Below are positions 5,909 through 7,768 of a stretch of DNA of 64,000 bases, piece by piece. Below the pieces are notes generated by a model. That model made no database searches, was not told where the DNA came from, and saw nothing but the letters and a program-made list of their open reading frames with translations. Within the stretch, counting starts at the first letter, position 1, and every line of letters begins with the position of its first letter. The translations under genes were made by a program, and so were the position numbers. The stretch comes from Escherichia coli (GTDB lineage: Bacteria > Pseudomonadota > Gammaproteobacteria > Enterobacterales > Enterobacteriaceae): assembly GCF_003334255.1 (NCBI RefSeq), contig NZ_QOWU01000007.1, one strand, 5' to 3'.

Positions 5909-5913
5909 CTGAT

Positions 5914-5938
5914 GGAGAGGGGCGGTGCTGCCTCTCTC
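5914..5938 (+). terminator. possible yiiD terminator hairpin (GAGAGG / CCTCTC stem), weak T-tract
   Basis: Inverted repeat gagagg-N10-cctctc immediately after the yiiD stop; downstream run is only moderately T-rich. Confidence 0.3.
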
Positions 5939-6318
5939 ATTCAGGTCATTTATATTAGTCCTTGGCTATTTCGGTTATATTAAATAAGAACTCTATAAAT
6001 TTTTATTCTTCGTTGGCTCCATACGTGTCTTGCTACATCACTGTTCAGGAGCATTTAAATATTATTTGTAGAACTGAGTGGCAATTATCGCAGATAATGC
6101 TTAATTCATCATCTTAGTTCATGTTTGAGCGATTTTTGATAGTCAAAACCCCCTCTGGTGCCATACTTTTCTCATAAATATTTTTAAAATCTATAGCTAA
6201 CAAATATTATGCAAAGATAATGGACTAGCATCATTGTCAGTATCATTCATTTACTGCTCTGTATGTTATGAATAATTATGTTGTATGTTTGATCTTAAAC
6301 CGTGGGAAGGAGGCTATA

Positions 6319-6426
6319 ATGGTTGCCAATATTAATCTCATTAAACAAGAAAGTTATTCTGTTGTTAATTTAGAAAAACAACTTTCCCGAACTGTTACCA
6401 ACAAAATTATAACGATGAGCAAGTAA
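6319..6426 (+). CDS. candidate unannotated small ORF, 35 codons (MVANINLIKQESYSVVNLEKQLSRTVTNKIITMSK)
   Basis: ATG at 6319 preceded by strong Shine-Dalgarno GGAAGGAGG (6305-6313, 5-nt spacer); TAA at 6424-6426; AT-rich rare-codon usage; below the 60-aa ORF-track cutoff. Confidence 0.25.
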   Translation: MVANINLIKQESYSVVNLEKQLSRTVTNKIITMSK

Positions 6427-6455
6427 AGACCGGTTGGTGGCAGTACTGACCGGTC
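6427..6455 (+). other. perfect 8-bp stem-loop (AGACCGGT / ACCGGTCT, 13-nt loop) directly after the candidate small ORF
   Basis: Inverted repeat read directly from sequence; no clear downstream U-tract, so terminator function is uncertain. Confidence 0.35.
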
Positions 6456-6760
6456 TGTGATGAAAGATTAATTTCACCTTAAATCCTGGTGCTGTTAGGA
6501 TGCTGACGTTTTTCGGCTACACCATTCAGATTATGCAAATAAATATCTCTGAATATAATATATTCATAGCACCCATAATTCATCCTGGGCGATAACTAAA
6601 CCATTTTTGAGTAATAAATGAAACAACTGCAACACTCTTATTATTTCTGGAAAACGCCTCGCAAAAACAAAACAACATGCAAAAATCCGCTTTTTTTAAA
6701 TGATTTTCCGGCGTAATTTTCGCACATACATTAATGAGTAATATATGTAAGGTATTGGTA

Positions 6761-6979
6761 ATGGCGATGAATACGGTTTTTCTTCATTTATCAGAAGAGG
6801 CAATTAAACGGCTGAACAAGCTTCGGGGCTGGCGTAAGGTTTCACGATCTGCAATTTTACGCGAAGCGGTAGAGCAATATCTGGAACGTCAGCAATTCCC
6901 GGTGCGTAAAGCAAAGGGAGGCAGGCAAAAGGGGGAGGTAGTTGGTGTTGATGATCAGTGTAAGGAGCATAAGGAATGA
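6761..6979 (+). CDS. yiiE: ribbon-helix-helix (CopG/Arc/MetJ-like) small DNA-binding protein
   Basis: 72-aa reading frame inside ORF-track ORF 6734-6979; RHH-like motif SRSAILREAVEQYL; start choice among 6734/6761/6767 is uncertain. Confidence 0.6.
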   Translation: MAMNTVFLHLSEEAIKRLNKLRGWRKVSRSAILREAVEQYLERQQFPVRKAKGGRQKGEVVGVDDQCKEHKE

Positions 6980-7220
6980 CAAAAATTTTTCATTCTTGAA
7001 TATAAAAAACAGATGCCCTTATTCTGGTATTAATACAAGGCTGTTTTACTTGAACTTATAATAACTGCAACTGTTACATCATATCTGGAAAACGCCTCGC
7101 AAAAATAAAAAATGATGCGTAAATGAGCTTTCTTTAAAGATTCGGCAAGGGTACTTTTCTCTCCATAGATTCAAAAATGATATTGGCGAGATATTTATGA
7201 ACTCTCTGGCAGGTATAGAT

Positions 7221-7439
7221 ATGGGCAGAATTTTACTCGATTTATCGAATGAGGTGATTAAGCAACTTGATGATCTCGAGGTGCAGCGTAATCTTCCTCG
7301 TGCGGACCTATTAAGGGAAGCGGTAGATCAATACCTGATAAATCAATCGCAAACAGCAAGAACCAGTGTTCCTGGCATCTGGCAAGGGTGTGAGGAAGAT
7401 GGTGTCGAATATCAGCGTAAGCTGCGCGAGGAATGGTAA
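7221..7439 (+). CDS. yiiF: ribbon-helix-helix small DNA-binding protein, paralog of yiiE
   Basis: 72-aa frame inside ORF-track ORF 7197-7439; motif [14 protein letters not shown]; roughly 45 percent identical to YiiE over the RHH core. Confidence 0.6.
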
Positions 7440-7487
7440 TGGGAAAAAATGATGTCAATCAGATTGCTGACAACGTGCGCGTTGTTC

Positions 7488-7592
7488 ATGCCGGATGCGG
7501 CGTGAACGCCTTATCCGGCCTACAAAGTCGTATAAATTCAATGTATTGCAGTTTATTGGTAGGCCTGATAAGCGCAGCGCATCAGGCAATCT
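7488..7592. repeat. REP/BIME element (two inverted REP units with linker)
   Basis: gccggatgcggcgtgaacgccttatccggcctac ... gtaggcctgataagcgcagcgcatcaggca; typical REP palindromes. Confidence 0.8.
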
Positions 7593-7768
7593 TACGCTTG
7601 TCATCAGTCTCATGCCCATAACCTTATTGATGTGGTGGTGGGTAAATTGAGGCCAAACCGGCACTGGCGGCATAGCTTGAGGTGGTAACGCGGAATACGA
7701 GAGATGGTGTCGTCACACCCTATGAGCTGTAATCCGGGCGACCTGCGCCACCCGGAAAACGTCAGAGA

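Follow-up and report, generated by a model that had tools for sequence, protein, structure and literature searches.

Why is the DNA between fabY and fdhE, two genes of densely packed core operons of Escherichia coli, so poor in G+C and in genes, and does it act as a functional element in its own right? We addressed this question in a 64-kb window (the whole stretch of DNA analysed, 64,000 nucleotides (nt)) of an E. coli K-12-like chromosome that carries, in order, dtd, fabY, yiiE, yiiF, fdhE (minus strand) and fdoIHG. The segment of interest, 5909-7768, starts directly after the stop of fabY (formerly yiiD; 4919/4967-5908) and ends at the stop of fdhE (7769-8698, minus strand); both stops, 5908 and 7769, lie where an earlier note on this DNA had put them. 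That note had taken the segment for H-NS-bound, horizontally acquired or regulatory DNA in which unannotated small RNAs (sRNAs) or small proteins were likely to be found. Our results suggest that the segment is very probably the outcome of layered acquisition and decay of genes at a plastic site flanked by two core operons rather than one functional element. Its two annotated genes, yiiE and yiiF, appear to descend from the antitoxin gene of a vapBC toxin-antitoxin (TA) operon, and the DNA around them appears to include a relic of the toxin gene and the stump of a foreign phosphatase-like gene.

The GC content of the segment is 0.397 compared to 0.520 across the window, and the lowest-GC 1860-nt stretch of the 64 kb begins at 5932 (0.394; stretches of this length have a mean of 0.519 and a standard deviation (sd) of 0.032, which places this one ~3.9 sd below the mean). 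The AT-rich core spans 5940-7200 (GC 0.35). The left arm, 5909-6383, has a GC content of ~33%, that of 5909-6733 is 0.33-0.36, and the final 330 nt (7440-7768) are not AT-rich (0.508). Only yiiE and yiiF are annotated inside the segment, for a coding share of ~24%, whereas the flanking genes are densely packed, with overlaps between dtd and fabY and between fdhE and fdoI. The earlier description of the segment as AT-rich and gene-poor was thus upheld by windowed GC analysis and by gene content. The 500-nt GC minimum of the segment is 0.318; the remaining AT-rich spots of the window, at 14240-14743, 20059-20795, 39704-40289 and 60414-60992, are far milder (0.388-0.396).

The gene yiiF (7197-7439, plus strand) appears to be an orphan VapB-type ribbon-helix-helix (RHH) antitoxin gene. 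It was described earlier, together with yiiE, as a 72-codon gene; this is right for yiiE, whereas YiiF has 80 amino acids (aa) in RefSeq, from the ATG at 7197, and 72 aa only if translated from the second ATG at 7221. The true start is uncertain because 4 of 34 species have another codon at the first ATG, whereas the second is invariant. Like YiiE, YiiF is a small protein with an N-terminal RHH domain, as expected of the VapBC antitoxin fold, and it matches Pfam RHH_1 with an E-value of 0.009. A profile of YiiF orthologues matched PDB 2K5J, deposited as 'uncharacterized protein yiiF', and PDB 7BY2/7BY3 ('CopG family transcriptional regulator') with an E-value of 7e-38. We take 7BY2/7BY3 to be the Klebsiella pneumoniae VapBC complex, a structure reportedly described by Kang and co-workers in 2020. 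We found the identical 7BY2 antitoxin sequence on 5.4-Mb chromosomes, where the gene order is fabY, alpha/beta hydrolase (minus strand), RHH protein (74 aa), PIN protein (127 aa) and fdhE (minus strand), and in the orthologous loci L089-L092 the PIN gene (PF01850) overlaps the antitoxin stop.

The same arrangement recurs across the family. We surveyed 80 Enterobacteriaceae species, using one genome per species and locating the site with FabY, and found a YiiF orthologue in the fabY-fdhE gap of 34. Nineteen representative orthologues are 54-79% identical to K-12 YiiF. In the species with an orthologue, an intact PIN gene nearly always comes next, and its product is 58-87% identical to the Klebsiella PIN protein. 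K-12 YiiF keeps all the nearly invariant C-terminal tail residues of its orthologues (G52, W54, E63, R66, K67, R69, E70 and W72), and YiiE does not; by analogy with VapBC complexes in general, this tail would contact VapC. Compared to chromosomal vapBC operons of Enterobacteriaceae, yiiF has the same position and the same upstream motifs, and its product keeps the tail GxW...EYxRKLREEW. The K-12 locus differs from these operons in that its PIN gene is an 87-nt relic with stops and a pair of repetitive extragenic palindromic (REP) sequences, and in that a second, tail-less paralogue is present, which is found only in Escherichia. As no PIN toxin gene lies beside yiiF in the window, the locus is a remnant of a VapBC system rather than a member. 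Taken together, sequence and synteny indicate that yiiF is a conserved, vertically inherited vapB, the apparent surviving antitoxin gene of a vapBC operon that occupies the same site across the family. The presence of vapBC at the fabY-fdhE site across Enterobacteriaceae argues that yiiF was not horizontally acquired. Our literature search found no paper in which yiiF is regarded as an antitoxin gene or in which the phosphatase-like cassette discussed below is described.

The position expected for the toxin gene is occupied by a putative vapC relic at 7646-7732 (plus strand), recognised by tblastn and by a profile of VapC orthologues. It reads IEAKPALAA-stop-LEVVTRNTRDGVVTPYEL-stop, matching approximately residues 21-30 and 101-124 of VapC, and tblastn with Klebsiella VapC aligned 23 aa of it at 61% identity. 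A profile of 36 VapC orthologues scored the K-12 relic at E 0.02, the stub of a B2 strain at 8e-6 and a relic in E. whittamii at 3.5e-9. In the B2 strain, the sequence after the yiiF stop, KKIWLFDIDILIDFLSVKIEAKQALAA-stop-LEEVTRNTRDSVVTPYEL-stop, matches the N-terminal and C-terminal ends of VapC, the part between them having been deleted, and K-12 7644-8698 is 97% identical to this B2 relic region. Between yiiF and the K-12 relic, comparison of breakpoints with the B2 strain E14 delimits an insertion at 7449-7643 (195 nt) that stands in place of 47 nt of B2-type sequence, inside the dead vapC. It carries two inverted REPs at 7489-7523 and 7559-7588, in agreement with the REP repeats claimed earlier, and thus has the make-up of a bacterial interspersed mosaic element (BIME): G+C-rich palindromes of ~35 nt in an inverted pair, extragenic and in many copies per genome. 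The pair folds strongly (z-score -3.9), and E. coli genomes match this part of the query at a median of 37 places each. In its inverted palindromes, its position in a convergent intergenic region and its tens of genomic copies the element is an ordinary E. coli BIME; it differs in sitting inside a dead gene and in being absent from the B2-type locus. These results suggest that the yiiF-fdhE spacer is, as judged from sequence comparison, a dead vapC interrupted by a BIME.

The second annotated gene, yiiE (6761-6979, plus strand), encodes a 72-aa RHH protein (Pfam RHH_1, E 1.6e-11) that is a paralogue of YiiF/VapB and 40% identical to YiiF. Each gene is preceded by one copy of a 100-nt direct repeat: 6622-6721 upstream of yiiE, with the motif TCTGGAAAACGCCTCGCAAAA at 6646-6666, and 7060-7159 upstream of yiiF, with the same bipartite motif at 7084-7104 (both plus strand). 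The two copies are 73% identical and the homology extends through the genes, which bears out the suggestion that the RHH modules are duplicated; a repeat search returned this duplication as its sole find. YiiE keeps the RHH core and lacks the VapB tail GxW...EDG.EY.RKLREEW, and its homologues were found only in Escherichia and Shigella. The yiiE and yiiF copies have in common the Escherichia-specific motif variant GAAAACGCC, which fits duplication or gene conversion within the Escherichia lineage. Among the 5426 complete E. coli genomes in which haplotypes were counted, the upstream block was present in 5414, at a median of 2 places per genome. YiiE and YiiF presumably continue to repress their own promoters by binding DNA through the RHH fold.

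The left arm appears to have a different origin, and comparison with O157 (locus L004) indicates how it arose. Positions 5909-6318 (plus strand) are 98% identical to O157 L004:4480-4889 and would be the AT-rich upstream or promoter region, itself accessory, of a foreign phosphoinositide-phosphatase-like gene. The following 22 codons, MVANINLIKQESYSVVNLEKQL (6319-6384, plus strand), are by the RefSeq pseudogene annotation and the O157 comparison the 5' stump of this SopB/INPP4-like gene. K-12 5909-6383 corresponds to O157 L004:4480-4954 (98% identity) and K-12 from 6383 on corresponds to L004 from 7001 on; exactly 2046 bp (L004:4955-7000) are missing from K-12. The junction at 6383/6384 shows ~1 nt of microhomology, which is typical of illegitimate recombination. 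RefSeq annotates 6268-6384 as a pseudogene 'missing C-terminus', and the chimeric open reading frame (ORF) of 52 codons at 6268-6426 consists of the 22-codon stump fused by the deletion to out-of-context sequence. Because it combines the stump of a foreign gene with a 2046-bp deletion and a RefSeq pseudogene call, this ORF, put forward earlier as a candidate small gene, appears to be a deletion artefact. The spacer that follows (6384-6621, plus strand) is non-coding in K-12 and is homologous to the 3' end of a 92-aa hypothetical gene and its downstream DNA in B2-type strains: K-12 6384-6985 aligns at 79% identity with L005:6400-7056 of strain E14, where the 92-aa gene occupies L005:6157-6435.

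In O157 the DNA missing from K-12 holds ORFs of 297 and 304 aa in the same frame with one TAG between them, and the intact N-terminus of the stump's parent gene is present. At the position of this amber codon other E. coli and Shigella lineages encode Ser, yet their copies break off elsewhere. The amber codon in O157 and the different truncations in other lineages suggest that the gene is decaying in several independent ways. The cassette genes have a GC content of 36-41% compared to 53% for the neighbouring native hydrolase gene. Close relatives of the cassette protein were found only in E. coli and Shigella, and the cassette is absent from 78 non-Escherichia loci. The parent gene lies at L004:4890-6704 in O157, encodes roughly 600 aa and is carried by about a fifth of complete E. 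coli genomes.

What did this gene encode? Pfam gave no significant match to the two O157 ORFs: the N-terminal half and a full-length relative matched nothing even at E <= 10, and the C-terminal half gave just two chance-level matches (E 0.06 and 1.4), with no IpgD family match. A PDB sequence search with the cassette protein returned no match, and neither did NCBIfam, PADLOC or PHROGs for the O157 cassette. An exhaustive HMMER search retrieved distant full-length relatives of 585-724 aa. All six full-length relatives inspected carry the P-loop GCKSAKDR(T/S), which in the O157 protein reads GCKSAKDRT. This motif is the signature of mammalian inositol 4-phosphatases, with Gly in place of Ala in SopB and IpgD (PMC3091653; PMC3248162). 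An AlphaFold2 model of one full-length relative (predicted local distance difference test score 87, predicted template modelling (TM) score 0.89) was compared with the PDB using Foldseek. The top matches were Salmonella SopB (8JZL, E 2.7e-7) and Legionella SidP and SidF, with a probability of 1.0 and TM-scores of only 0.33-0.44. Among the matches in the AlphaFold database were SAC-domain phosphatases, chlamydial and Aquicella proteins, and a 617-aa protein of E. coli IAI39 that is not interrupted. Fold and motif together suggest that the stump's parent was a CX5R phosphoinositide phosphatase-like protein outside the Pfam families, a prediction that the modest TM-scores temper. The parent gene thus shares with SopB/SigD, IpgD and mammalian INPP4A/B the P-loop GCKSAKDR(T/S) and a SopB/SidP/SidF-like fold; it differs from them in belonging to a family with no Pfam match, in TM-scores of 0.33-0.44 and in the disruption of the E. 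coli copies examined, and its enzymatic activity and secretion are putative.

Distant relatives of the phosphatase-like protein also occur in metagenomic contigs. In RefSeq and UniProt, the C-terminal half of the gene (L087:4336-5250, L088:2302-3216) bears the name 'transposase', and one Shigella entry reads 'IS600 ORF2'. The transposase label is contradicted by the fold and the P-loop and is probably a propagated misannotation.

The site as a whole is variable, both within E. coli and across the family. The K-12-type arrangement with the 2046-bp deletion was found in 1986 of the 5426 genomes (37%), at least 80% of the phosphatase-like cassette in 1062, a block of hydrolase, RelE-like/NadS and 92-aa genes in 1270, and the 474-nt left arm (5909-6382) in 3056 (56%). 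The fullest arrangement (loci L087 and L088) comprises fabY, the cassette, the hydrolase gene (minus strand), RelE-like and NadS genes, small ORFs, yiiE, yiiF and fdhE. One further haplotype has no yiiF, and in another the two RHH genes are separated by a DUF6708 gene pair. Among the 80 species the fabY-fdhE gap ranges from 76 bp to 3.8 kb, being almost empty (76-154 bp) in a few, and outside Escherichia its GC content is 0.46-0.55 in most loci (outliers 0.42 and 0.65). A RelE-like/NadS module replaces vapBC in 11 species. The presence/absence comparison that the earlier note had called for thus revealed an interval conserved neither in length nor in content, with several haplotypes within E. 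coli alone.

Such variability could point to a dedicated integration hot spot with site-specific recombination, in which the RHH genes or REPs serve as attachment or directionality elements and the segment is an empty or partly filled docking site. In line with this idea, vapBC in some genera gives way to RelE-like/NadS at this position in others, a B2 strain carries the DUF6708 gene pair as an insert between its RHH genes, and insertions of insertion sequences (IS1 and IS621) occur. However, no integrase or recombinase gene, no tRNA gene and no direct repeats at the borders were found in any haplotype examined, the ~1 nt of microhomology at the K-12 junction is typical of illegitimate recombination, and the orthologue of the RHH genes is an ordinary antitoxin gene. 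We therefore regard a dedicated hot spot as highly improbable and continue to favour gain and decay.

Several further observations concern the variable content of this site. In the B2 strain E14, a urinary isolate, the DUF6708 protein (282 aa) and a 246-aa hypothetical protein are encoded at L005:7235-8848 on the minus strand; this pair had no match in NCBIfam, PADLOC or PHROGs. The IS1 and IS621 (IS110-family) insertions lie in the fabY-fdhE interval of some strains. The RelE-like/NadS loci are L009, L011, L018, L019, L023, L027, L031, L034, L036, L043 and L066, as opposed to 34 vapBC loci. The two unrelated TA modules are almost mutually exclusive at fabY-fdhE, and E. coli B2 has RelE-like/NadS together with vapB relics. 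PADLOC reported nothing for the O157 cassette, the DUF6708 pair, YiiE or YiiF, and a known defence system was dropped as a candidate.

Is the segment nevertheless H-NS-bound foreign DNA, as first proposed? Table 2 of Curtis et al. 2017 (PMC5797941) lists yiiE as H-NS-associated in two chromatin immunoprecipitation (ChIP) data sets (Kahramanoglou, Oshima) and as 2.5-fold up-regulated on SlyA over-expression; in the same table, neither GIST nor IslandViewer flags yiiE as part of a genomic island. YiiE is also among the targets of SlyA in genomic SELEX (systematic evolution of ligands by exponential enrichment; PMC6134199). The left arm combines the low G+C content and the strain polymorphism of H-NS-silenced foreign DNA, and yiiF, being ancestral, does not. 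Like the K-12 islets that are silenced by H-NS and counter-silenced by SlyA or LeuO, the segment is AT-rich, strain-variable, H-NS-listed in that table and mildly SlyA-induced; unlike them it is very small and lacks an intact cargo gene, and yiiF and the vapC relic, which make up half of it, are ancestral rather than imported. The proposal of H-NS-bound or horizontally acquired DNA therefore stands for the left arm, which is accessory, occurs in 56% of genomes and belongs to a cassette of 36-40% GC, and it agrees with the H-NS listing of yiiE in that one table, but it does not extend to the vertically inherited yiiF.

A further possibility is that the AT-rich non-coding DNA is a regulatory hub encoding unannotated sRNAs or small proteins, among them the 52-codon ORF at 6268-6426. 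Its low coding density and high AT content would suit such a role, and AT-rich DNA bound by H-NS gives rise to spurious or cryptic promoters, which we count as a point in favour of a hub. The spacer between yiiD and yiiE also contains an RpoS-holoenzyme peak in genomic SELEX (PMC5493296), and the yiiE transcript responds to SlyA. Against this, a scan of 4000-10000 with Rfam 15 (E <= 1) found no family at gathering score, and the best hits, to the REP-derived families naRNA4 and ES036, both fell on the REP pair and below threshold (38.2 vs 59.5 bits and 36.8 vs 37.6 bits). Promoter-like sites were fewer than in shuffled sequences (2 vs 5.5 expected), in a scan that we rate as uninformative, and the promoter/terminator scan found no terminator for the small genes yiiE and yiiF. 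The 52-codon ORF is a stump fusion made by deletion, 44% of genomes lack the left arm, and the conserved leader of yiiF has no consensus RNA structure (see below). In PHROGs and NCBIfam the small proteins had only generic or weak matches of RHH, helix-turn-helix or antitoxin type, and a literature search on intergenic features of yiiD-yiiE, yiiE-yiiF and yiiF-fdhE returned nothing usable. We consider a regulatory hub very unlikely. The low gene density, read earlier as a mark of regulatory DNA, is better explained by decay, namely the 2046-bp deletion, the internal deletion of vapC and the REP insertion. The prediction that hidden sRNAs or small proteins lie here likewise found no support, with no Rfam family at threshold, no structured leader and a candidate ORF that is the 5' stump of a deleted gene. 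The non-coding parts would thus have no separate function.

Gene decay accounts less readily for the conserved DNA upstream of the antitoxin genes. We aligned 260 nt upstream of vapB/yiiF from 34 species together with both K-12 copies and recognised three signals. Signal A is a bipartite motif, TCTGGAAAG-N4-CTCGCAAAAG, that starts 111-115 nt (mostly 112-113 nt) before the first ATG. It is present in 33 of the 36 aligned regions (31 loci of other species and both K-12 copies; the other three have no clean match) and is conserved far better than the surrounding sequence. Signal B, TGATATACTGGAGGTATATATG, contains the Shine-Dalgarno sequence GGAGG as well as short repeats surrounding the start codon. 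Signal C is a perfect LexA box, CTGTATnnATATACAG, beside the hydrolase start wherever the hydrolase gene is present. The intergenic distance there is 196-202 bp in 23 of 24 species and 190 bp in the remaining one. RNAalifold on 22 yiiF/yiiE leaders gave no consensus RNA structure (zero pairs), suggesting that the conserved blocks are DNA or protein signals and not an RNA element.

The LexA boxes suggest that the hydrolase is an SOS-regulated esterase that K-12 has lost. In K-12, CTGGTATTAATACAAG at 7024-7039 aligns under the CTGTATnnATATACAG boxes of at least 20 species and no longer fits CTG-N10-CAG; with low confidence, it may be a degenerate relic of the LexA box. Perfect boxes (CTGTATGAATGTACAG and variants) lie ~15-20 nt upstream of the start of the divergent alpha/beta hydrolase (hormone-sensitive-lipase family) in many genera and in E. 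coli B2, for example at L005:4983-4998, and also in L010, L012, L014 and ~20 other loci.

Signal A raises the possibility that yiiE and yiiF are dedicated transcription factors, that the motif is a sigma-54 promoter and that the segment is an enhancer-dependent regulatory module. Both K-12 copies read TGG-N9-CGCA (6648-6663 and 7086-7101), in keeping with the -24/-12 geometry of sigma-54 promoters. The variable positions of the motif coincide with the N4 spacer of the consensus TGGCACG-N4-TTGCA, the motif is kept across genera at a near-fixed distance, and in K-12 it is identical in both copies; 99.8% of E. coli genomes retain the modules. However, it departs from sigma-54 promoters at conserved positions (GGAAA for GGCAC, TCGC for TTGC). 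In species without the hydrolase it starts ~10 nt past the stop of fabY, where an enhancer would have no intergenic space, and in other genera the gene behind it is an ordinary TA antitoxin gene. The motif is absent from the sigma-54 ChIP-seq sites of Bonocora et al. 2015 (PMC4591121), in which the nearest listed site is CTGGCGCGAATTCTGCA, an intragenic site inside fdoI, 468 nt upstream of fdhE (genome coordinate 4079719), and from the RpoN promoters that Shimada et al. 2021 identified by genomic SELEX (PMC8743547). We consider a sigma-54-dependent module very improbable; an operator for the RHH proteins is the simplest alternative reading of signal A.

Combining these results under gain and decay, we propose the following history. 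The ancestral Enterobacteriaceae site would have held a divergent alpha/beta-hydrolase gene and a vapBC operon (RHH and PIN genes) convergent with fdhE. In the Escherichia lineage vapC would have lost its middle and become a relic, into which the REP pair later inserted in K-12-type strains, with vapB surviving as yiiF. A unit of ~440 bp, consisting of the upstream block and vapB, would have doubled, and yiiE, the Escherichia-specific copy, would have lost the C-terminal tail, presumably the toxin-binding part. Beside fabY, an AT-rich cassette encoding a SopB/INPP4-like CX5R phosphatase may then have entered and been inactivated already in E. coli lineages, as by the amber codon in O157. In K-12-type strains the 2046-bp illegitimate deletion would have left the promoter region and 22 codons, and the hydrolase gene and the RelE-like/NadS module would also have gone. 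The AT-rich DNA that remains, listed as H-NS-associated in the table cited above, would be modestly SlyA-inducible. The steps build on homologies, synteny, breakpoints and strain frequencies observed directly in the genomes.

Some points weigh against this account. The order of events is provisional. The H-NS evidence is second-hand, coming from a table that cites ChIP studies. The K-12 vapC relic is weak when taken alone (E ~0.02) and depends on the link through the relics of B2 and E. whittamii, together with its precise position. The conserved bipartite upstream motif is left unexplained. Finally, 99.8% of E. coli genomes retain yiiE and yiiF along with the blocks upstream of them, and the 21-nt motif is identical in both copies, which argues that these genes are under selection and more than debris. 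It is possible, though unlikely, that yiiE, yiiF and the motif are kept for a selected function, or that the intact phosphatase-like protein of the IAI39 type is an active effector. If so, yiiE and yiiF could be an anti-addiction or immunity device against incoming vapBC, or co-opted regulators with targets elsewhere. The upstream motif, which fits no operator that we could name, might be an RHH operator of a new kind or an atypical sigma-54-type promoter, and the 617-aa protein of strains such as IAI39 could be a functional, so far undescribed phosphoinositide-phosphatase effector of E. coli.

Two further features lie at the ends of the segment and may mark the ends of the converging transcripts. 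Just 3' of the fabY stop, a G+C-rich hairpin at 5915-5938 (plus strand) is a possible end of the dtd-fabY transcript; the fold of 5905-5965 has a 10-bp stem (-23.9 kcal/mol, z-score -2.6) with no clean U-tract after it, and the terminator scan made no call there. Just downstream of the fdhE stop, a G+C-rich hairpin at approximately 7721-7744 (minus strand) is a possible end of the fdoGHI-fdhE transcript. Here the minus-strand fold of 7600-7775 has a 10-bp stem, CCGGGUGGCG/CGCCCGG, that is followed by no U-tract, so that a terminator role is only presumed.

In kind, the segment is ordinary, a variable, decaying and H-NS-silenced locus, and these findings alter no general principle. The details that appear to be undescribed, and modestly new, are the orphan vapB, its tail-less duplicate, the vapC relic split by a BIME and the SopB/INPP4-like stump. 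They would make the locus a small, self-contained illustration that gene decay alone can produce an AT-rich "intergenic desert" within a core region. They also serve as a caution that AT-rich deserts need not be reservoirs of hidden regulators, given that the candidate small ORF appears to be a deletion artefact. The stump points to an uncharacterised SopB/INPP4-like family that about a fifth of E. coli genomes, O157 among them, carry mostly in the form of pseudogenes, and that is apparently intact in some extraintestinal pathogenic E. coli. Together, these results would account for two long-standing K-12 genes of unknown function, yiiE and yiiF, as what is left of a vapBC operon that is still intact in Klebsiella, Citrobacter, Enterobacter and other genera.

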